Origin: an uncultured Methylomirabilota bacterium
Lineage (GTDB): Bacteria; Methylomirabilota; Methylomirabilia; Methylomirabilales; 2-02-FULL-66-22
Length of the DNA: 64,000 nt
Direction of reading: 5' to 3'
Assembly (NCBI GenBank): GCA_963845565.1
Contig: CAWJSJ010000002.1
Span: 1,664,001 to 1,728,000, forward strand
In this document: piece after piece, positions 3,510 to 12,095 of the stretch
Layout of the letters: every line of letters starts with the position of its first letter
How positions within the stretch are numbered: the first letter of the stretch is position 1
The notes under the pieces: generated by a model
Database searches by the model: none
What the model was told of the DNA's origin: nothing
Seen by the model: only the letters and a program-made list of their open reading frames with translations
Position numbers and translations under genes: made by a program

Positions 3510-4268
3510 ATGTCGGGAAATACCCCAGTCGCCGTGGTGACAGGCTCTTCGCGGGGCATCGGGCGCGCCATCGCCCTCGCCTTCGCCGCGGCGGGTTACG
3601 ACGTGGTCATCAACCACCGAGCGGTGGGCGGCACCTCCGAGGTGAAGGCCGAGGAGGTGTGCAATCTCGTGCGCGAGCGCGGCCGCCGGGCCTTGCGGAT
3701 TCCGGCCGACATCGCAGAGCGGGAGGATGTCCGGCGCCTGTTCGCGGGGGTCACGGAGACCTTCGGGCGGGTGGATGCGTTGGTGCTGAACGCCGCCCGG
3801 GCCCCGTTCAAACCGGTGGAGCGCTTGCTGGAACGCGAAATCGACCAATTGGTCGCCACCAACTTTACGGGCCACCTGCGCTGCGTGCGGGACGCCCTAC
3901 CGCTGCTGGACGCCGCCGGCGGTGGGTCGGTGGTCTTCATCTCCAGCCTGGGCAGCCGCTTCTATTCGCCGAGCTACCCGTTGGGCCTCATGAAGGCGGC
4001 CATGGAGGCGGCGGTCCGGCACTGGGCGGAGAGTCTCGCCTCCCGGGGCGTCCGCGTCAACGCCGTCTGCGGCGGGGTGGTGCGGACCGATTCGTTCAAG
4101 ACCCTCCGCCAGGTGTGGGACGGCCTCGATCGCATTCCCGATGCGTGGTGCGTAGAGCCGGAAGAGATCGCCGATGTGGTCCTCTTCCTCTGTTCCGGCG
4201 CCGCCCGCGGGATACGGGGCCAGACCCTGGTGGTCGATCGGGGAGTGGCCAACCGGCTCGCCTGCTGA
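3510..4268 (+). CDS. SDR oxidoreductase, FabL-like enoyl-ACP reductase
   Basis: TGSSRGIG, NAA, ISSLGS, extended Y-x5-K (YPLGLMK) instead of YxxxK; first gene of the fab cluster. Confidence 0.75.
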   Translation: MSGNTPVAVVTGSSRGIGRAIALAFAAAGYDVVINHRAVGGTSEVKAEEVCNLVRERGRRALRIPADIAEREDVRRLFAGVTETFGRVDALVLNAARAPFKPVERLLEREIDQLVATNFTGHLRCVRDALPLLDAAGGGSVVFISSLGSRFYSPSYPLGLMKAAMEAAVRHWAESLASRGVRVNAVCGGVVRTDSFKTLRQVWDGLDRIPDAWCVEPEEIADVVLFLCSGAARGIRGQTLVVDRGVANRLAC

Positions 4269-4308
4269 GCGATCTGCGGAATCCAACGACTCATACGAAA
4301 GGTGCGTC

Positions 4309-4878
4309 ATGCAGAATCTCATCTCCGAAGACCGTGTCATCGCCGAGATCATGAAGATCGCCGCCGAGACTCTCCGGGCGCCGGAGGGAAAGGTGACTCC
4401 CGACAGCTCCTTCGTCCGCGACCTGGGCGCCGAATCGCTCGATTTCCTGGACATCGACTATCGGATGGAGCAGGTGTTCGGCATCAAGATGGCGCGCCAC
4501 TTCTTCCTGGAACACGTGGAGGAGATGTACGGCGAAGGGGCCGCCATCGACGAGGACGGCGCCCTCACCAAGAACGCCCTGACCCTTCTGCGGATCCGGT
4601 ACGGCGAGGAGAATCTGCCGGACCTGTCGAACGGACTCGACATGGATAAGGTCCCCCCCCTCATCACGATACGCTCCATGGCCGACGCCGTGCACAGCAT
4701 CTTGGCCACTTTGCCCGAGCACTGTCCGGCGTGTAACGCCAGCCAGTGGAAGACCGACGACGGCACGCACATCGTCTGCGGCGCCTGCGGCGAGGCGGCC
4801 CCCTTCACCAACGGTGACGATCTCATCCGCAGCTGGCTCCAGCGGGTGCAGGACGAGACCGGCCTCTTCAAGAACTGA
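4309..4878 (+). CDS. Atypical acyl carrier protein (189 aa) with internal insertion and C-terminal CxxC-x14-CxxC metal ribbon
   Basis: DLGAESLDFLDI phosphopantetheine site, F-G-I-K motif, CPAC...CGAC. Confidence 0.85.
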   Translation: MQNLISEDRVIAEIMKIAAETLRAPEGKVTPDSSFVRDLGAESLDFLDIDYRMEQVFGIKMARHFFLEHVEEMYGEGAAIDEDGALTKNALTLLRIRYGEENLPDLSNGLDMDKVPPLITIRSMADAVHSILATLPEHCPACNASQWKTDDGTHIVCGACGEAAPFTNGDDLIRSWLQRVQDETGLFKN

Positions 4879-4899: not shown

Positions 4900-6192
4900 A
4901 TGCATGTCGTCGGACCTCCACGCCGGGTGGTGGTCACCGGGTGGGGCGTGGTGAGCCCCCTGGGACCTACCGCCGAGTCCACCTTCCAGGCCGCCGCCGC
5001 AGGCCGATCCGGAATCCGGGCCCTCACGGCGTTCGATCCCACCGGCCTGCCCTGTCGCATCGGCGGCCAGGTCGCGGACGCCGGTGTGGCGCCGCTGGAT
5101 CCTGTTCTGGACCCCCCTACGCGCCTCCTGTCACGAGGGGTGCGCTTCATGCTGACCGCCGCCGCCGAGGCGGCGGGCCAGGCGAAACTCGCGGAAGCCG
5201 CCGACCCGGCCCGCATCGCCATGGTGCTCGGATCGCACGGCGAGAACCCCACCTTGGCCGACGTGCTGCGCCGCCACCGGTACACCAACGGGGCGGGGCA
5301 ATGGGACATGGCGGGATTGGCGCGCGAGCGAGTGGGAGATCCTTTCGCGCTCCTGCGCCGGAAGCCGGACGTGGCGGCGGCCCTGGTGGCCGCCCGCTTT
5401 GGACTGCGGGGCGCCAACCTGTCCATTTGCTCGGCCTGCGCCGCCGGGGCCCAGGCCGTGGGCGAGGCTTATCGCCTGATCCGTGAGGGTCGCGCCGACG
5501 CCGCGCTGGCGGGCGGCTGCGAAAGCGCGCTCAATTTCGTCGGCTTCGTCGGTTTCCAGCTGCTGAAGGCCATGGCCGAGAAGTACAAGAGCCCCGAGAC
5601 GGCCTCGCGCCCCTTCGACCGGCGGCGGTGCGGTTTCGTCATGAGCGAGGGGGCCGGCGCCCTGGTGTTAGAGACCCTGGAGGGCGCCCGGGTCCGTGGC
5701 GCCGCTATCCTCGGCGAGGTCTTGGGGTACGGCGACTCCGCCGACGCCTACCGCATCACCGACACGCATCCGGAGGCCGAGGGGGCGATTCTGGCGATGC
5801 AAGGTGCCCTGGCCGATGCCGGGTTGCCCCCCGACGCGGTGGAGTACGTGAACGCGCACGGAACCTCTACCGCCGTCAACGACGTCACCGAGACCCGTGC
5901 CATCAAGGCGGTGCTGGGCGAGCGGGCCCGGACGGTGCCGGTCAGCTCCAACAAGTCCATGCTTGGCCACACCATCGGCGCCGCCGGCGCCATCGAGGCG
6001 ATTCTCGCCCTGATGGGGATGCGCGTGGGGTTGGTGCTGCCCACCATCAATTACGAGTACCCGGACCCGAAGTGCGACCTGGATTACGTGCCCAACGTGG
6101 CCCGGCCGCTGGCGCACCGGGTGGCCCTGTCGAACTCCTTCGGCTTCGGCGGTCAGAACGCGTGCCTGTGCCTGGGCCGCGGTGATGTCTGA
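4900..6192 (+). CDS. fabF: Beta-ketoacyl-ACP synthase II
   Basis: Intact Cys-His-His triad (SACAAG, NAHGTST, GHTIGAAG), RPFD, SNSFGFGGQN. Confidence 0.92.
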   Translation: MHVVGPPRRVVVTGWGVVSPLGPTAESTFQAAAAGRSGIRALTAFDPTGLPCRIGGQVADAGVAPLDPVLDPPTRLLSRGVRFMLTAAAEAAGQAKLAEAADPARIAMVLGSHGENPTLADVLRRHRYTNGAGQWDMAGLARERVGDPFALLRRKPDVAAALVAARFGLRGANLSICSACAAGAQAVGEAYRLIREGRADAALAGGCESALNFVGFVGFQLLKAMAEKYKSPETASRPFDRRRCGFVMSEGAGALVLETLEGARVRGAAILGEVLGYGDSADAYRITDTHPEAEGAILAMQGALADAGLPPDAVEYVNAHGTSTAVNDVTETRAIKAVLGERARTVPVSSNKSMLGHTIGAAGAIEAILALMGMRVGLVLPTINYEYPDPKCDLDYVPNVARPLAHRVALSNSFGFGGQNACLCLGRGDV

Positions 6193-6300
6193 GCGGGCGG
6201 TCGTGACCAGGGTCGGTGTCTGGACGCTCCTCGGCAGCGGCGCGGCGGCCGCCTGGGCGGCGCCGGGAACGCCGCCCGCGTGCTGACGGCGGTGGATTGA
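6185..6300 (+). pseudogene. Internally deleted ketosynthase remnant
   Basis: ATG 6185 reads MSERAVVTRVGVWTLLGSGAAAAWAA (KAS N-terminus); another frame ends GNAARVLTAVD-stop at 6300 (KAS C-terminus). Confidence 0.65.
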
Positions 6301-6303
6301 GCC

Positions 6304-6777
6304 ATGCGGTTTCTGTACTACGACCGTATCGTGCGCATCGAGCCCGGGCGGCGCATCGTGGGGGTGAAGGCCTTCGCCCTCTCGGAGGAGTTTCTGCGCG
6401 GCCATTTTTCCCGCGAGCCTCTGGTGCCGGCGCCCATCCTGCTCGAGGCCATGGCGCAGGTGTTGGGCTGGGGCATCATTCATGCCCACAAGTTTCGCCT
6501 CTCGGCGCTCCTCTCCCTGGCGGAGGGTTTTCGGATGGAACGACCCCGGCTGCGCCCGGGCGTGACCGCTACCATCACCGGCGAGATCGTCACCACCACG
6601 CACCGCGACTCCCTCGGCCGGGCCTGGGTGGAGGCCGACGGCGAGCGGGTGGCCACGCTCGGCCGGATCATCTACGCCCACCTGGCCCCGGTACCCGAGG
6701 TGGAGTTGCTGCACCGGTTCTGTTATTACAGCGGACTGACCCGCGAACAAGCCGTGGCAGAGGGCGGACTGCCGTGA
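6304..6777 (+). CDS. FabZ/FabA-like 3-hydroxyacyl-ACP dehydratase (hotdog fold), copy 1
   Basis: RFLYYDRI, GHFSREPLVPAPILLEAMAQ (His and Glu retained). Confidence 0.85.
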   Translation: MRFLYYDRIVRIEPGRRIVGVKAFALSEEFLRGHFSREPLVPAPILLEAMAQVLGWGIIHAHKFRLSALLSLAEGFRMERPRLRPGVTATITGEIVTTTHRDSLGRAWVEADGERVATLGRIIYAHLAPVPEVELLHRFCYYSGLTREQAVAEGGLP

Positions 6778-6884
6778 GCGCCCGCGCCCGTGCGCGCGCC
6801 GAGGCGGCGATCCCGGCGTCACCCCTGGCCGGTGGCGTGACGGGCCGGTGTTTTGACGTGGACGGGGGGATGGACATCGCATGA
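6774..6884 (+). pseudogene. Remnant of a FabG-like SDR (C-terminus only)
   Basis: GTGA overlap with the upstream stop; 36 aa ending ASPLAGGVTGRCFDVDGGMDIA-stop, overlapping the acpS ATG (ATGA). Confidence 0.65.
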
Positions 6885-7288
6885 TCCGGGTGCTGCAGGG
6901 GATCGACGTGGTGGAGGTGACGGCGGTGGCCGAGATGTGCCGGCGCCACCCAGCCTTCCTGCGAGAGACGTTCACCGACGAGGAGCGCGCCTACTGCGAC
7001 GCGCAGGCGGACCCCACCCCCCACCTGGCGGCGCGCTTTGCCGCCAAGGAGGCTGCCCTCAAGGCCCTCGGGCTGGGGTTGGCCGGCCCCGAGGGGATCG
7101 GTGCCTTGGGCGCGGTGGAAGTGGTGCGGCGCCCATCCGGGCGGCCGGAGCTGCGGTTGGTTGGTTGGCCGGCGCGCATGGCATCCCGTTGCAGCGTGCG
7201 GCAGACCACGGTCTCGCTGTCGCATACGGCGGGCGTGGCGATGGCGTCGGTGGTGATGGTGACGGACGAGCCATTCGCGGAGGAGTGA
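6881..7288 (+). CDS. acpS: Holo-ACP synthase (phosphopantetheinyl transferase)
   Basis: GIDVVEV, FTDEERAYC, LAARFAAKEAALKALG, SLSHT. Confidence 0.92.
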   Translation: MIRVLQGIDVVEVTAVAEMCRRHPAFLRETFTDEERAYCDAQADPTPHLAARFAAKEAALKALGLGLAGPEGIGALGAVEVVRRPSGRPELRLVGWPARMASRCSVRQTTVSLSHTAGVAMASVVMVTDEPFAEE

Positions 7289-7292
7289 GCCT

Positions 7293-7745
7293 GTGCGTTT
7301 CCTACTGGTGGACCAGGTCCTGGCGTGCCCGCCCACGGGGCCGGTGCGCGGGGTCAAGAATGTGGCCATGAGCGAGGACTTCCTCGAATTCCATTTTCCG
7401 GGTAATCCGGTGATGCCCGGCGTCCTCTTGCTGGAGGCCATGGCCCAGCTGGCGGGCTGGCGCGAGGCGGCCGTCAGCGACTTCACCCGCTGGTTTCTGC
7501 TGGACCAGGTGCGGCGCAGCGCCTGGTACGGGTTCGTCCTGCCCGGCGATCAGGTGGCCCTGACGGTGGAGCCCTTGCCGGATCCGGCCGACGGCCGGCG
7601 GGCGTTCCGTGGACTGGGTGAGGTGGGTGGCCGCAAGCGCGTGGCCGCCGAGTTCGAGGGCGCGACGGTGCCACTGGCGGAACTGGACGACCCCGCCGTG
7701 CTGCGCCAGCACTTCCGGCGGCTGTGCCGCGAGGGTGGCTTCTGA
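7293..7745 (+). CDS. FabZ-like 3-hydroxyacyl-ACP dehydratase, copy 2
   Basis: RFLLVD, KNVAMSE, HFPGNPVMPGVLLLEAMAQ. Confidence 0.88.
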   Translation: MRFLLVDQVLACPPTGPVRGVKNVAMSEDFLEFHFPGNPVMPGVLLLEAMAQLAGWREAAVSDFTRWFLLDQVRRSAWYGFVLPGDQVALTVEPLPDPADGRRAFRGLGEVGGRKRVAAEFEGATVPLAELDDPAVLRQHFRRLCREGGF

Positions 7746-9028
7746 TGGAGACGCGCACGGTGGCCATCACGGGCGTGGGGCTGGTCAGTGCCCTGGGGCA
7801 TGGGGTGGCGGCCAACTGGGAGGGGGTGGCGGCGGGACGCTCCGGGATGACCGCGGACGGCGATCCGATGTATCCCCCCTGGATCCGTTGGGCGGGTCGA
7901 GTTGCAAATGTCGCCCTGCCGGCGGGGCTGGATCCAAAACTTCTGGGGCAGGCCAAGTTCCTGAACCGCGGCGCCCTGCTTGGGTTGGCGGCGGCATGGG
8001 AAGCGACGCAGCAGGCGGCCCTGCCGGCGGCCCTGCCGGCCGGCCGGCGTGCCCTCTATGTCGCCACCGGCGACTTCACCATGGCGGATTGTACGTTTCT
8101 CTATCCGGCGGTGCGGGACGCATCGGGGGGTCGGTTCCGCAAGCTGGATCCCGAGCGGTTGAACCGGGCCACCGTGGACAAAGTGAATCCGTTCTTCCTG
8201 CTGGAATCCATCACCAACAACCCGTTCAGCTTCGTGTCGGCGGCGCTGGGCTGCATGGGCCCCGGGACGTCGCTGGGCAGCCAGTCCCCCAGTGGGGCGC
8301 ACGCCCTGGAGTTGGGTTACCGAGCGGTGCGAACGGGGCGGGCCGATGCTGCCGTGGTCGTCGGGTGCGGGGCATGGGTGGGCCCAGTGCCCCAGCTGGA
8401 GATGAAGGAGTTGGGCCTATCGTCCGCCGCGCTGGCGGGTGCCGCGTCGTTCCGCCCCTTCGATCGCCGCCGCGACGGCTTCCTGGTCGGGGATGGTGGA
8501 GCGGCGCTGGTGCTGGAGCCGCTCGAGACGGCCCGGGCTCGTGGCGCCGTCGTGCACGGCGTGGTGCGCGGTGTGGGAAACGGCACCGGATCGTCCTCCC
8601 GCCTCGTGGTACAGCCTGAGGTGGCCCTGGCCGCCATGCGCGAGGCATTGGCGGAGGCGGCGGCGGCCCCCGCGGGACTGGGTTTCGTGTGTCCGCACGG
8701 CAGCGGCACGCGCAAGGGAGACCGGAGCGAAGGGGTGGCGTTGTCCGAGCTCTTGGCCGGTACCACCGTACCGGTGTGTGCACTGAAGCCCTATACCGGC
8801 CATCTTGGCGCTGCCAGCGACGTGGGCGAGGTCGTGCTCGGGCTGTCGGCCGCCGTGCACGGCGTGGTGCCCGCCACGCTCCACTTCACCGCGGCCGAGC
8901 CGGCATACGCCGCGCTGGCCCTGGCCGCCACACCGCAGCCCTGCGCCGTTCCCCTGTTCCTGTCGATCAGCTGCGGGCTTGCCGGTCAGGCGGCGGCCGT
9001 GGTGGTGGAAGCGACCCCGAGCCGATGA
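7745..9028 (+). CDS. FabF-like ketosynthase with Ser at the catalytic Cys position
   Basis: VAITGVGLVSALG, RPFDRRRDG, PHGSGT, GHLGAAS; GSQSPSGAHA aligns with CSACAAGAQA of FabF. Confidence 0.85.
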   Translation: METRTVAITGVGLVSALGHGVAANWEGVAAGRSGMTADGDPMYPPWIRWAGRVANVALPAGLDPKLLGQAKFLNRGALLGLAAAWEATQQAALPAALPAGRRALYVATGDFTMADCTFLYPAVRDASGGRFRKLDPERLNRATVDKVNPFFLLESITNNPFSFVSAALGCMGPGTSLGSQSPSGAHALELGYRAVRTGRADAAVVVGCGAWVGPVPQLEMKELGLSSAALAGAASFRPFDRRRDGFLVGDGGAALVLEPLETARARGAVVHGVVRGVGNGTGSSSRLVVQPEVALAAMREALAEAAAAPAGLGFVCPHGSGTRKGDRSEGVALSELLAGTTVPVCALKPYTGHLGAASDVGEVVLGLSAAVHGVVPATLHFTAAEPAYAALALAATPQPCAVPLFLSISCGLAGQAAAVVVEATPSR

Positions 9029-9975
9029 GCGCGAAGACCCGCAAGAAAAGCCGCCTGCAGGCGTGGGGGGAGTATGCTCTCGTCTGGACTGTCCTCCACC
9101 TGGCGAAGGCGTTGCCCGCTCCGATCTTGCGAGGCGGCGCGGCGCTGGCGGCCGATGCCGCCTATCGGGTCCTGGGCCGCCGCCGCCGGGTGGCCGAGGA
9201 CAACGTGCGCGCCGCCTTAGGGGCCGAACTGGACGAGGTCGGGGTTCGGGACGTGGCGCGGAAGAGCTTCCGCGCCTTTGCCCGGACCGTGCCCGAGATG
9301 GTCACGATGCACCGGTTCCTCACTGCTCCGGACGCCCGGCGCTGGATGGAGGAGATGGACCCCACCCTGCACGCCCTCTTCGACCGGGTCCGGGCGCTCC
9401 ACGAGCTGCATCGCGGCTGCGTCTTCGTCACGCCGCACCTGGGCAACTGGGAACTGCTCCCCTTTGCCAGCGCCGCCCTGGGCATTCCCATGGTGGTGGT
9501 GGTGCGCCCGCTGGATAACCCCCACCTCGAGCGGCTGGTGTACGCCAGCCGGGCCGGAACCGGCCAGCTCTTCATCCCCAAGCGCAATTCCCTCCTCCCG
9601 CTCCAGCAGATGCTGGCGAGAGGCAAATCGGTAGGCTTGCTCCCGGACCAGAGTACCATGAACGGACTCGCCGTACCTTTCTTCGGACGTCCTGCCTGGA
9701 CGACGCCGGTGCCGGCGGTGCTGGCGCTGCGTGGCGAGCGCCCCCTGGTGGTGGTGGGCTGCGTCAGACGGGCCGACGGCTGGTTCACCGGCCACGTCTC
9801 TGACCCCATTCAGCCCCGGCCCGGGGGCAACGAGCGGGAGGAACTGGTGCGCCTCACCACCGCCATGAACGCCGAGATGGAGCAGGTCATCCGGCGCTTT
9901 CCCGATCAGTACTTCTGGATGCACAACCGCTGGAAGACCTACGGCCGGGATATGGGCGGGGCCGTGGCCCGCTGA
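9025..9975 (+). CDS. LpxL/HtrB-family lipid A or lysophospholipid acyltransferase
   Basis: HLGNWE (Hx4E), RPLDNP, LLPDQ, PFFGRPA, PDQYFWMHNRWK. Confidence 0.9.
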   Translation: MSAKTRKKSRLQAWGEYALVWTVLHLAKALPAPILRGGAALAADAAYRVLGRRRRVAEDNVRAALGAELDEVGVRDVARKSFRAFARTVPEMVTMHRFLTAPDARRWMEEMDPTLHALFDRVRALHELHRGCVFVTPHLGNWELLPFASAALGIPMVVVVRPLDNPHLERLVYASRAGTGQLFIPKRNSLLPLQQMLARGKSVGLLPDQSTMNGLAVPFFGRPAWTTPVPAVLALRGERPLVVVGCVRRADGWFTGHVSDPIQPRPGGNEREELVRLTTAMNAEMEQVIRRFPDQYFWMHNRWKTYGRDMGGAVAR

Positions 9976-10395: not shown

Positions 10396-12095
10396 ATGAG
10401 TGCCACGATCCTACTTGCGTCCTTGGTGCTCTACCTGGTGTTCTACTTTACCTACGGCAAGTCCCTCCAGAAGAACCTGCTCAAGTCCAACGAAGCGCCA
10501 GATGCTCCCTCGAAGCGGTTGTCGGACGGCGTGGATTACGTGCCCACCAGCAAGTACGTGCTGTTCGGCCATCACTTCGCATCCATCGCCGGCGCGGGAC
10601 CGATCGTGGGGCCGGCCTTGGCCATCGGCTGGGGGTGGCTCCCCTGTCTGGCCTGGATCTGGTTCGGCAACATCTTCATCGGGGCCATTCACGACTATCT
10701 GGCCCTAGTCGCCTCGGTACGCTACGACGGTCGCTCGGTCCAGTACGTGGCCCAGGACCTGATCGGGAAGAAGGCCGGCAAGACCTTCGGCTGGTTCATC
10801 ATGTTCCTCTGCATCCTGGTGGTGGCGGCCTTCGGTGACATCGTGGCCGGGCAGTTCGCGGCGGGGAAGGGGGAGGTCTTCAGCACCTTCTTCCTCTTCT
10901 GCGTGGCCGCGGTGATCATGGGCTATTTCATGTACCAGACCAAGATGGGGGTCGGCCTCAGCACCCTCATCGGCCTCGTCCTCTTGACCGTGGCCTTCTT
11001 CCTGGGCCTGGAGTACGGGGTGAAGGCCAGCAAGGACACTCTGGTTCCTGGTGATCTTCGTCTACATCGTGATCGCCTCGGCCCTGCCGGTGAACTGGCT
11101 GCTGCAGCCGCGGGATTACCTGAACAGCTTCCTTCTCTACTTCGGTCTGCTGGTGGGCGGCCTGGCCGCCGTCTTGGGGGCGCAGGGCCTCACCTCGGTC
11201 CCGGCCTTCACCTCTTTCTCCGCCACCATCATCGGCGGGCAGCCGTCCCCCTTCTGGCCAACGGTGCCGCTGGTGATCGCCTGCGGAGCCCTTTCCGGAT
11301 TCCACGCCCTGGTGGCCTCGGGGACCAGCTCCAAGCAGCTCCGGGAGGAGAAGGATGCCCTCTTCGTCGGCTACGGCGCCATGCTGACCGAGGGGTTTCT
11401 CTCCACCATCGTGATCATCTCCGTCGCCGGCTTCGGGGCCCTGGCCCTCGGCGCCGACAAGGTCCTCACGACCGGGGCCATGCCACGGTTCATCCAGTCC
11501 TACGGGGCCATGGTGTCCTCGGTGCTGCCCTTCCTGAGCCGGGATTTCATGAACCTGTTCGCGGCGGTCTGGGTCTCCTCCTTCGCCTTGACCACGCTCG
11601 ACACCACCAACCGACTCGGGCCGCTACATCGTCCATGAGCTGGCCATGCCCCTGAAGGACACGTCGCCGGGGATCTACGGCGTCCTCCAGAACCGCTGGA
11701 TCGCCTCGGTGATCATCGCCTTCTGCGGCGTGGGTCTGGCCTGGAGCGGGAACTACACTGTCCTGTGGCCGGCGTTCTCCGGGGCCAACCAGCTCATCGC
11801 CTCCATCGTGATGCTGACGGTGGCCATGTGGGTGAAGCACGACCTGAACGAGAAATACGCCAACGTGGTATTGATCCCGGCCGTCCTGCTCTGGATCACC
11901 GTGACCTGTGGCATCATCTGGTACCAGATCGTCGTCGTGCCCGACTTCTTCAAGGCGGGTGCGCCGACGAAGCAGTTGATCACGGGCGTGGTGGTGGGCG
12001 GCATCAACCTGATCATGCTGATCATGAACTTCGTCACCGTGGCTCAGTTCTTCAAGCGGTACGGGAAGAAGGTACTCCGCGAAGCCAAGGCCTGA
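10396..12095 (+). CDS. cstA: Carbon starvation protein A family transporter (frameshifts near 11040 and 11620)
   Basis: DGVDYVP, LFGHHFASIAGAGPIVGP, ACGALSGFH, TTLDT, LWPAFSGANQL spread over three consecutive frames. Confidence 0.9.

Follow-up and report, generated by a model that had tools for sequence, protein, structure and literature searches.

A conserved acyl carrier protein of double size with an integral four-cysteine site in an uncultured Methylomirabilota bacterium

Introduction

To our knowledge, acyl carrier proteins (ACPs) are regarded as small helical shuttles without a bound structural metal. In rhizobia, the acpXL-fabZXL-fabF2XL-fabF1XL-(adhA2XL)-lpxXL cluster attaches a very long chain to lipid A (PMC11901934, PMC5613085). 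That system has a dedicated ACP, a ketosynthase (KS) pair, a FabZ and an LpxL-type transferase, as does the locus described here, but AcpXL itself is of ~93 residues, with a short insertion at helix III and no metal site. Lipid A of Legionella also bears a very long chain (PMC5613085), and the genes reported there comprise an ACP (lpg0359), two ketosynthases (lpg0361-0362) and a lipid A acyltransferase (lpg0363) (PMC13200437, PMC9112007). The special ACP of anammox bacteria, amxACP, works with an active and a Cys-less FabF (amxFabF2/amxFabFmut), FabF homologues that are paired in the manner of a ketosynthase and a chain-length factor (CLF) (bioRxiv 10.64898/2026.05.19.726425).

Another system of relevance is the koreenceine synthase of Pseudomonas, whose genes kecA-K were deleted in P. 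koreensis CI12 in a study that also gives the upstream-arm primer (PMC6498172). The route set out in the available text of that study consists of ketoreduction, thioester reduction and transamination only, with no redox tailoring, and the pairing proposed is KecB-KecC and KecD-KecE. KecA is named there as an ACP, and the main text contains no mention of zinc, cysteine or a ribbon; "zinc" is likewise absent from the available text of a later koreenceine preprint (10.64898/2026.10.11.757169). In the literature that we searched, for the most part outside subscription journals, no ACP with a built-in zinc ribbon was found described. Here, we report an ACP with a four-cysteine ribbon (the ribbon ACP) that is encoded in the window, a stretch of 64,000 nucleotides analysed as a whole, and compare its gene cluster with these systems.

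Gene and Protein

The ribbon ACP gene has 189 codons plus stop (Table 1), and its start is preceded by GAAAGG, a hexamer resembling a ribosome-binding site, at 4297-4302. An initial annotation had described an ACP of 189 residues, more than twice the normal length, with ESL in place of DSL at the phosphopantetheine serine, an insertion of ~50 residues after FGIK and CPAC-x14-CGAC followed by a helix, and all of these traits are borne out. The Pfam PP-binding model matches above its cut-off at residues 13-69, and Pfam, the structural model and the matches to solved ACPs agree on a type II ACP, i.e., a helical bundle with the serine (Ser43) opening helix II. The stretch that opens with the F of FGIK and closes with the T just ahead of the last core helix is 63 residues long, compared with 14 in an ordinary ACP (P0270); therefore, about 49 are extra. 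The ribbon (139-160) and the helix behind it (169-184) both appear in the model. There are no cysteines besides Cys139, 142, 157 and 160, and a pattern of the CxxC-x14-CxxC type arose in 37 of 200,000 shuffles of the protein. ESL does not set this protein apart: 118 of 121 sequences (the query and its 120 best homologues) have E ahead of the serine, and ESID was found in 119/119 ribbon-less relatives counted. A D35N change in DSL blocks E. coli AcpS, according to a preprint whose available main text has no D-to-E change.

The initial annotation had also pointed out that non-conserved cysteines, or homologues ending before the ribbon, would indicate a read-through artefact. Neither is the case, since the four cysteines are kept in 120 of the 121 aligned sequences and at 80 of 80 loci. 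An assembly artefact is ruled out as well by a contig from a public DNA run, which spans 4113-4832, including all four cysteines, with one difference. Contigs from the RNA libraries of one study also span the gene; these possibly derive from DNA and hence are no proof of transcription. The opposite strand of 4309-4878 is likewise open and is treated here as a shadow frame. We consider it confirmed that the gene is real and encodes a conserved double-size ACP with a built-in four-cysteine site.

Table 1. Positions of the features discussed (window coordinates, except for the second block).
Feature	Position	Strand	Basis
S1, FabL-like short-chain reductase, probable enoyl-ACP reductase	3510..4268	+	NCBIfam FabL best, 193.5 bits vs cut-off 328
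Ribbon ACP gene (P0001), 189 aa	4309..4878	+	translation, Pfam, homologues, model
ACP core, helices I and II, residues 1-60	4309..4488	+	PP-binding 13-69; helices 7-22, 43-57
Phosphopantetheine serine Ser43 in ESL (residues 42-44)	4435-4437	+	Ser43 in 120/121 rows, gap in the other
Insertion subdomain replacing helix III, residues 61-120	4489..4668	+	model; homologue alignments
ACP helix IV, residues 121-132, bundle-closing	4669..4704	+	model; solved ACPs align over ~residues 4-133
Four-cysteine ribbon Cys139-x2-Cys142-x14-Cys157-x2-Cys160	4723..4788	+	conservation; sub-threshold Pfam zinc-ribbon and weak fold matches
Fifth helix, residues 169-184, Gly-Asp at its start	4813..4860	+	model; G169 and D170 invariant in alignments A1 and A2
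KS1, active ketosynthase (Cys-His-His), KecB counterpart	4900..6192	+	Pfam; triad conservation; tree
Junction of ~1 kb deletion removing KS2	6263..6269		comparison with same-genus locus L176; contigs of two DNA runs bridge it
FabZ-like dehydratase 1 (FabZ1)	6304..6777	+	Pfam, NCBIfam, locus comparison
FabG 3′ remnant	6793..6884	+	locus comparison; left by ~2 kb deletion
AcpS-family phosphopantetheinyl transferase	6881..7288	+	Pfam, NCBIfam
FabZ-like dehydratase 2 (FabZ2)	7293..7745	+	Pfam, NCBIfam
KS4, ketosynthase without catalytic Cys, chain-length-factor-like, KecE counterpart	7745..9028	+	Cys absent; tree SH-aLRT 95
LpxL-family acyltransferase, H-x4-E motif	9025..9975	+	Lip_A_acyltrans 140 bits
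Second block: KS1 3′ remnant, KS2, FabZ1, KS3, FabG	L081:6297-10345 (G000:C2:1,253,300-1,257,340)		lower GC3

Predicted Structure

The AlphaFold2 model, built with 117 sequences (pLDDT 93.7, pTM 0.87), is a single compact unit with no disordered linker. Helices span residues 7-22, 43-57, 66-74, 88-98, 121-132 and 169-184, and short strands lie at 147-149 and 155-157. Solved ACPs align over residues ~4-133, and therefore helix 121-132 corresponds to the ACP's own helix IV. The model thus places the ribbon between helix IV and a fifth helix, and the insertion would take the place of helix III. The description as an ACP "fused to a rubredoxin/zinc-ribbon-like domain" stands as far as the ribbon is concerned; "fused" is somewhat misleading for a model that forms a single rigid body, and "rubredoxin-like" is weak.

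The closest solved sequence, AcpXL of Rhodopseudomonas (2kw2), is at the same time the longest structural match of the 50 listed (94 residues aligned, Z 9.3, rmsd 2.9). The core of the ribbon ACP is matched by amxACP as well (Z 8.9); the solved amxACP chain, however, has 89 residues without large insertion or ribbon, and the amxACP cluster contains radical SAM and desaturase-like genes, unlike the cluster described here. These differing sizes and partner genes rule out a machinery of the amxACP ladderane kind. Foldseek returned nothing at E 0.001 for the whole ribbon ACP model, and the ESM Atlas matches were unnamed or "carrier domain" clusters only. A predicted complex of ACP, KS1 and zinc scored 0.01 with the controls unfolded, and we gave it no weight.

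Rubredoxin has two CxxC knuckles ~29 residues apart and an aromatic core. The ribbon ACPs mostly have another spacing: 13-15 residues separate the knuckles in 70 of 77 patterns, which, together with the hairpin strands of the model, conforms to TFIIB-like ribbons (short Cys knuckles 12-18 apart on a beta hairpin), and 27 residues do so in two. The first knuckle varies between CxxC and CxC in the 121 aligned sequences. Pfam DZR_2, Rrn7 and TFIIB ribbons match below their cut-offs. A model of the ribbon only (pLDDT 67) found no fold match at E 0.001 or Z above 2.5; the weak matches were to TFIIB-type and ribosomal zinc ribbons, and rubredoxin was absent among the 50 Foldseek and 32 VIA matches listed.

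A rubredoxin-like iron site, serving as a redox centre or a metal/oxygen sensor and, for instance, hydroxylating or desaturating the tethered chain, has in its favour a sub-threshold match to RUBY_RBDX, the rubredoxin-like family of rubrerythrin (E 0.016, residues 134-148, one knuckle), as well as the fact that four-Cys sites are able to bind iron and that many hosts belong to lineages that we take to be anaerobic. Nevertheless, we consider it very unlikely: the spacing is that of zinc ribbons, the ribbon has repeatedly been lost, the 80 loci have no conserved oxidase, desaturase or reductase partner, and the koreenceine route, as described, gets by with ketoreduction, thioester reduction and transamination (PMC6498172).

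Conservation and Distribution

A word search yielded 268 homologues among 458 candidates. In the alignment of the query with the best 120 of these 268, CxxC..CxxC is present in 98/121, CxC..CxxC in 22/121 and one sequence is frameshifted. The four cysteines are kept across 21-53% overall identity in an alignment selected for ribbon presence, and the residues in between show little conservation from clade to clade. Relatives are encoded in 159 stretches of GTDB species genomes; the best 80 of these 159 were taken as loci, and all 80 keep the four cysteines. Their hosts are mostly Nitrospirota, along with Acidobacteriota, Desulfobacterota-type bacteria and a few others. Among eight loci of the window's phylum, L182, in which Ser replaces the second Cys, is the sole exception. 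A profile search of representatives at 50% identity listed 150 matches; of these, 71 have at least 170 aa, with the four-Cys pattern in 59, and 42 are of 120-169 aa with the serine motif and without a ribbon. Near home the protein is patchy, being found in 2 of 30 relatives, in 1 of 18 same-genus genomes and, at full length, in 9 of 251 genomes of the phylum.

Ribbon ACPs were also seen in Actinomycetota (the P0146 cluster of Nocardia brasiliensis and N. vulneris; P0235 of Streptomyces) and in Acidobacteriota (P0177, Bryobacteraceae); Actinomycetota, as far as we know, have no lipid A. In P0157 and P0176, 27 residues lie between the knuckles versus 14 in the window protein, near the rubredoxin spacing. 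Plasmid searches with P0001 and P0146 gave no match, and a search with P0177 gave only ordinary ACP cores.

Two ribbon-less relatives, L084:11971-12429 and P0233, retain the fifth helix, and in some relatives of this sort its Gly-Asp start becomes Gly-Glu. We built an unrooted tree of 91 carriers from the few columns of core and insertion only, after excluding rows outside 125-240 aa as well as 25 named ones of fragmentary, frameshifted, chimeric or tandem appearance. Ribbon-bearing forms occupy most deep branches, 31 ribbon-less forms make up one group (SH-aLRT 93) and five others stand apart, some of them nested among ribbon forms; well-supported branches force at least three changes. The ribbon therefore appears to have disappeared on several occasions, one of them in a KecA-like protein with a retained fifth helix.

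Gene Cluster

In its full form, the cluster runs FabL-like reductase (S1), ACP, KS1, KS2, FabZ1, KS3, FabG, AcpS, FabZ2, KS4 and LpxL-like acyltransferase. At the best 80 loci, S1 lies upstream of the ACP in 80/80 and KS1 downstream in 77/80, the remaining three ending at the gene. We have hardly any doubt that the ribbon ACP is the dedicated carrier of this cluster, which we take to encode an accessory type II synthase. Among the 60 loci with at least 7.5 kb downstream, 23 reach the LpxL-like gene and 27 have S1-ACP-KS1 only on the spot. Where the locus stops at KS1, a KS4 orthologue is present elsewhere in 5/5 genomes tested, and in two such genomes the distant KS4, once fetched, was seen to adjoin FabG, AcpS and FabZ2. 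The S1-like gene of a ribbon-less sister cluster exceeds the FabL cut-off. The best NCBIfam model for the LpxL-like protein of the window is lipid A lauroyl acyltransferase, with scores below every NCBIfam cut-off. No redox enzyme is conserved inside the clusters (best 80 loci; 19 inserted ORFs), nor is an exporter or release enzyme (best 80 loci, inserted ORFs). In one cluster, an ORF that by eye resembles a B12-binding radical-SAM enzyme lies between FabZ1 and KS3 (L079:8684-9988); NCBIfam gives no match for it at 1e-40.

The catalytic Cys and both His are present in 73/73 KS1 and 31/31 KS3, and the Cys is found in 0/34 KS2 and 0/27 KS4. Judged by these residues, active KS1 and KS3 against Cys-less KS2 and KS4 would be the pattern of ketosynthase/chain-length-factor pairs.

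The window copy is reduced. Compared with same-genus locus L176, it has lost KS2 (Table 1) and, through a ~2 kb deletion with its junction at 6780-6793, KS3 and most of FabG; contigs of one DNA and one RNA-library run bridge the latter junction. The remaining genes are open, with intact motifs. On the same contig, ~410 kb away, a second block holds KS2, FabZ1, KS3 and FabG, and it is ~64% like the same-genus copy in DNA, where alignable. The second block and the reduced window cluster, taken together, look, in this one genome, like selection keeping the whole set. A contig of DNA run X2 departs from the window at the 6263 junction, as would be expected of a strain lacking the KS2 deletion.

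Other observations were made in the window and elsewhere in this genome. Beyond the cluster, at 10396-12095, a CstA carbon starvation gene apparently lies broken across three frames; behind it come a small ORF and one that by eye looks like an ArsA-like ATPase. A second odd ACP (L082:9102-9767; G000:C2, near 2,598,200) has ESID, a different insertion of ~130 residues and no ribbon, and belongs to its own FabZ-CLF-FabG-ACP-FabZ-reductase-KS cluster. A lipid-type cluster with ketosynthases and an ACP (L230:3858-12001 and L231; G000:C1:458,000-492,000) also contains several ORFs that by eye are radical-SAM-like, an MMPL-like ORF and a mannoside-acyltransferase-like gene.

Relationship to the Koreenceine Synthase

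Cultured Pseudomonas have ribbon ACPs of 189 aa that make up a distant clade, in which 52/55 sequences of at least 180 aa carry the four cysteines. Among 20 metagenome loci of the Pseudomonas type, 17 run into a KecB-like ketosynthase and 14 reach the aminotransferase-reductase, in kecA-I order. The end of the published upstream-arm primer has an exact match in 3/164 loci, each flush with the start codon of the ribbon ACP. From primer and gene order, we infer that KecA is a ribbon ACP of this kind. The Pseudomonas-type protein and that of the window are both of 189 aa and share one architecture, i.e., colinear insertion, four-Cys ribbon and fifth helix; they are 27% identical over 179 residues, gap-free and with the four cysteines aligned, and their profiles match at 99.9%. 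The motif at the serine differs, DSL in KecA and ESL in the ribbon ACP.

In a quick KS tree whose long branches meet at KecC and KecE, KecC groups with KS2 (SH-aLRT 95), KecE with KS4 (95) and KecB with KS1 (86); the best BLAST match of KecD is KS3 in 4/4 cases. Two ketosynthases and two chain-length factors, as in koreenceine synthesis, all lie on contig C2, half of them within the window and the other half ~410 kb away. On these comparisons, the koreenceine synthase and this cluster would have in common a five-gene core, an ACP and four ketosynthase-type genes. The surroundings differ: the kec cluster, whose product is a C14 alkaloid, has the aminotransferase-reductase and export genes at its end, whereas FabL, two FabZ, AcpS and an LpxL-family enzyme are found in the window-type cluster. 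KecF aminotransferase-reductase and the export genes are neither among the conserved genes of the 80 loci nor in the window cluster.

KS1 and KS4 are found together without KS2 and KS3 in the window cluster, L070, L227 and L228; therefore, the pairs may be KS1-KS4 and KS3-KS2. By homology, koreenceine pairs may then be KecB-KecE and KecD-KecC. L038 and L064, with KS1-KS2-FabZ1 alone on the spot, are no simple fit with a KS1-KS4 pairing.

Ribbon and fifth helix could be a docking module for a partner, most likely a KS1/KecB-type ketosynthase or a chain-length factor. Every ribbon-ACP locus seen with downstream DNA continues in a ketosynthase (KS1 in 77/80, KecB-like in 17/20), the KecB-KS1 grouping (SH-aLRT 86) and the fifth helices that outlive the ribbon in L084 and P0233 fit this idea, and DUF35 zinc-ribbon proteins are described as touching thiolase-fold enzymes (PMC12960953). 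On the other hand, inter-knuckle residues are poorly conserved across clades, and a Photobacterium kec-like cluster has all four ketosynthase genes and a KecA-like protein that lacks the ribbon while keeping the fifth helix. A narrower form, docking to the second KS pair, fails at L070, L227 and L228, where ribbon ACPs occur with KS1 and KS4 only. That the extension exists to serve the second KS/CLF pair is accordingly rejected as a rule, on the strength of loci only, because ribbon ACPs occur in loci with one pair. Docking as such seems to us an unlikely, though not far-fetched, main role.

Relationship to Lipid A Systems

Ribbon-less relatives of 134-137 aa occur in Legionella, and the UniRef name AcpXL stands on 7 of the 120 matches listed, as a database label. 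One of these Legionella proteins is 26% identical to the ribbon ACP over 119 residues, through the insertion, and E before the serine is also common to both. Planctomycete-type ACPs have the insertion as well. Such Legionella proteins and the ribbon-less sisters differ in having neither ribbon nor fifth helix, and go with one KS pair. The AcpXL family NF005079 gives 41.1 bits on the ribbon ACP, below the cut-off of 83, and one Legionella form, with 49.3 bits, is likewise below it. Rhizobial AcpXL delivers a C26-C34 chain to lipid A, and the literature listings yielded no lipid analysis of a host of the ribbon ACP. The genomic context of the ribbon ACP is that of AcpXL (FabZ, active and inactive KS, LpxL-type transferase), although the full cluster, with four KS genes, two FabZ, FabL, FabG and AcpS, is unlike the rhizobial one. 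In the window's phylum, ribbon-less short carriers lie in FabL-FabG-ACP-FabZ-KS-CLF clusters, and the LpxL-like gene is reached in 7 of 16 fetched loci.

Seven of the 80 ribbon-ACP loci lie beside lpxD/lpxA-like and lpxI-like genes, and LpxA passes its cut-off in L004. The window's own genome has lpxC and lpxB, and its only other LpxL-family gene ranks with mannoside acyltransferase. In a lipid A operon of this genome (L083:5661-5822; G000:C1, near 650,700), the order is lpxD-fabZ-lpxI-like without a full lpxA in between, and the best lpxA match stands by itself on C2, near 1,871,000. Overall, we lean towards lipid A as the destination of the product; whether the chain is very long is an even call. 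Since only 1 of 18 same-genus genomes has an orthologue, this is not the standard lipid A route of the genus.

The LpxL family acylates other glycolipids too. The chain could thus be meant for a glycolipid other than lipid A or for a small molecule, or the cluster could be decaying in this genome. The homologous core yields an exported alkaloid in Pseudomonas, two deletions have taken KS2, KS3 and FabG from the window copy, and the cluster is patchy (9/251 phylum genomes with full-length matches). Against this stand the second block with KS2, FabZ1, KS3 and FabG, the open genes and intact motifs of what is left, and the lack of a conserved exporter or release enzyme in the cluster. We regard this alternative as a minority option.

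Discussion

We hypothesize that the ribbon ACP is a lipid A chain carrier held in shape by a structural zinc, a reading to which, as a whole, we assign a probability of roughly 0.6. The cluster AcpS would load the phosphopantetheine arm onto Ser43, KS1 and KS3 would form ketosynthase/chain-length-factor heterodimers with their Cys-less partners KS4 and KS2, and FabG, the two FabZ and FabL would provide full reduction in each round. The finished long chain would be transferred to lipid A by the LpxL-family enzyme. One structural zinc ion would be bound by the four cysteines, making the ribbon a short connector that holds the fifth helix against the enlarged carrier; it would stabilise or shape the carrier and do no chemistry on the chain.

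That the metal site is structural and not redox-active we consider likely. Structural zinc is favoured because the ribbon was repeatedly lost and no redox enzyme goes with the cluster, and the zinc-ribbon spacing and weak fold matches lead us to read the site as one that places the fifth helix. The varying first knuckle points the same way, and a precedent is found in DUF35 proteins, whose zinc ribbons scaffold thiolase-fold enzymes (PMC12960953). Among the roles that the initial annotation had offered for a metal site, the conserved four-Cys ribbon itself stands, the structural role fits best and the redox centre is disfavoured. Two points might weaken the structural role: the identity of the metal is not readable from sequence, and the cysteines are retained beyond what a simple stabiliser might require. 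Alternatively, the ribbon may be a switch, sensitive to metal or redox state, that shifts the fifth helix and thereby gates the carrier's choice of ketosynthase pair or acyltransferase. We hold this to be improbable; if true, it would mean a regulatory metal site inside an ACP, common to antibiotic and outer-membrane lipid pathways.

The suggestion that the insertion enlarges the acyl pocket is unsupported as stated. The insertion is common to KecA, whose product is C14, and to the AcpXL-labelled proteins of Legionella, which by that label are very-long-chain carriers, and a pure pocket-size role is therefore doubtful. As a part of the structural-zinc carrier, it would more likely be a partner-recognition surface than a longer pocket.

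What we describe is a real variant of type II ACP, undescribed in the literature searched, and its mechanism is probably modest. In this family, the carrier is extended by a subdomain, a four-Cys site and a fifth helix, and these are kept in Nitrospirota, Acidobacteriota, Pseudomonas and Actinomycetota. The five-gene core would connect an established antibiotic synthase with what is probably a synthase for lipid A, and the predicted KecB-KecE and KecD-KecC pairing departs from the published one. Through the putative tie to KecA, the question shifts from uncultured organisms to a strain that is genetically tractable and whose product can be measured.
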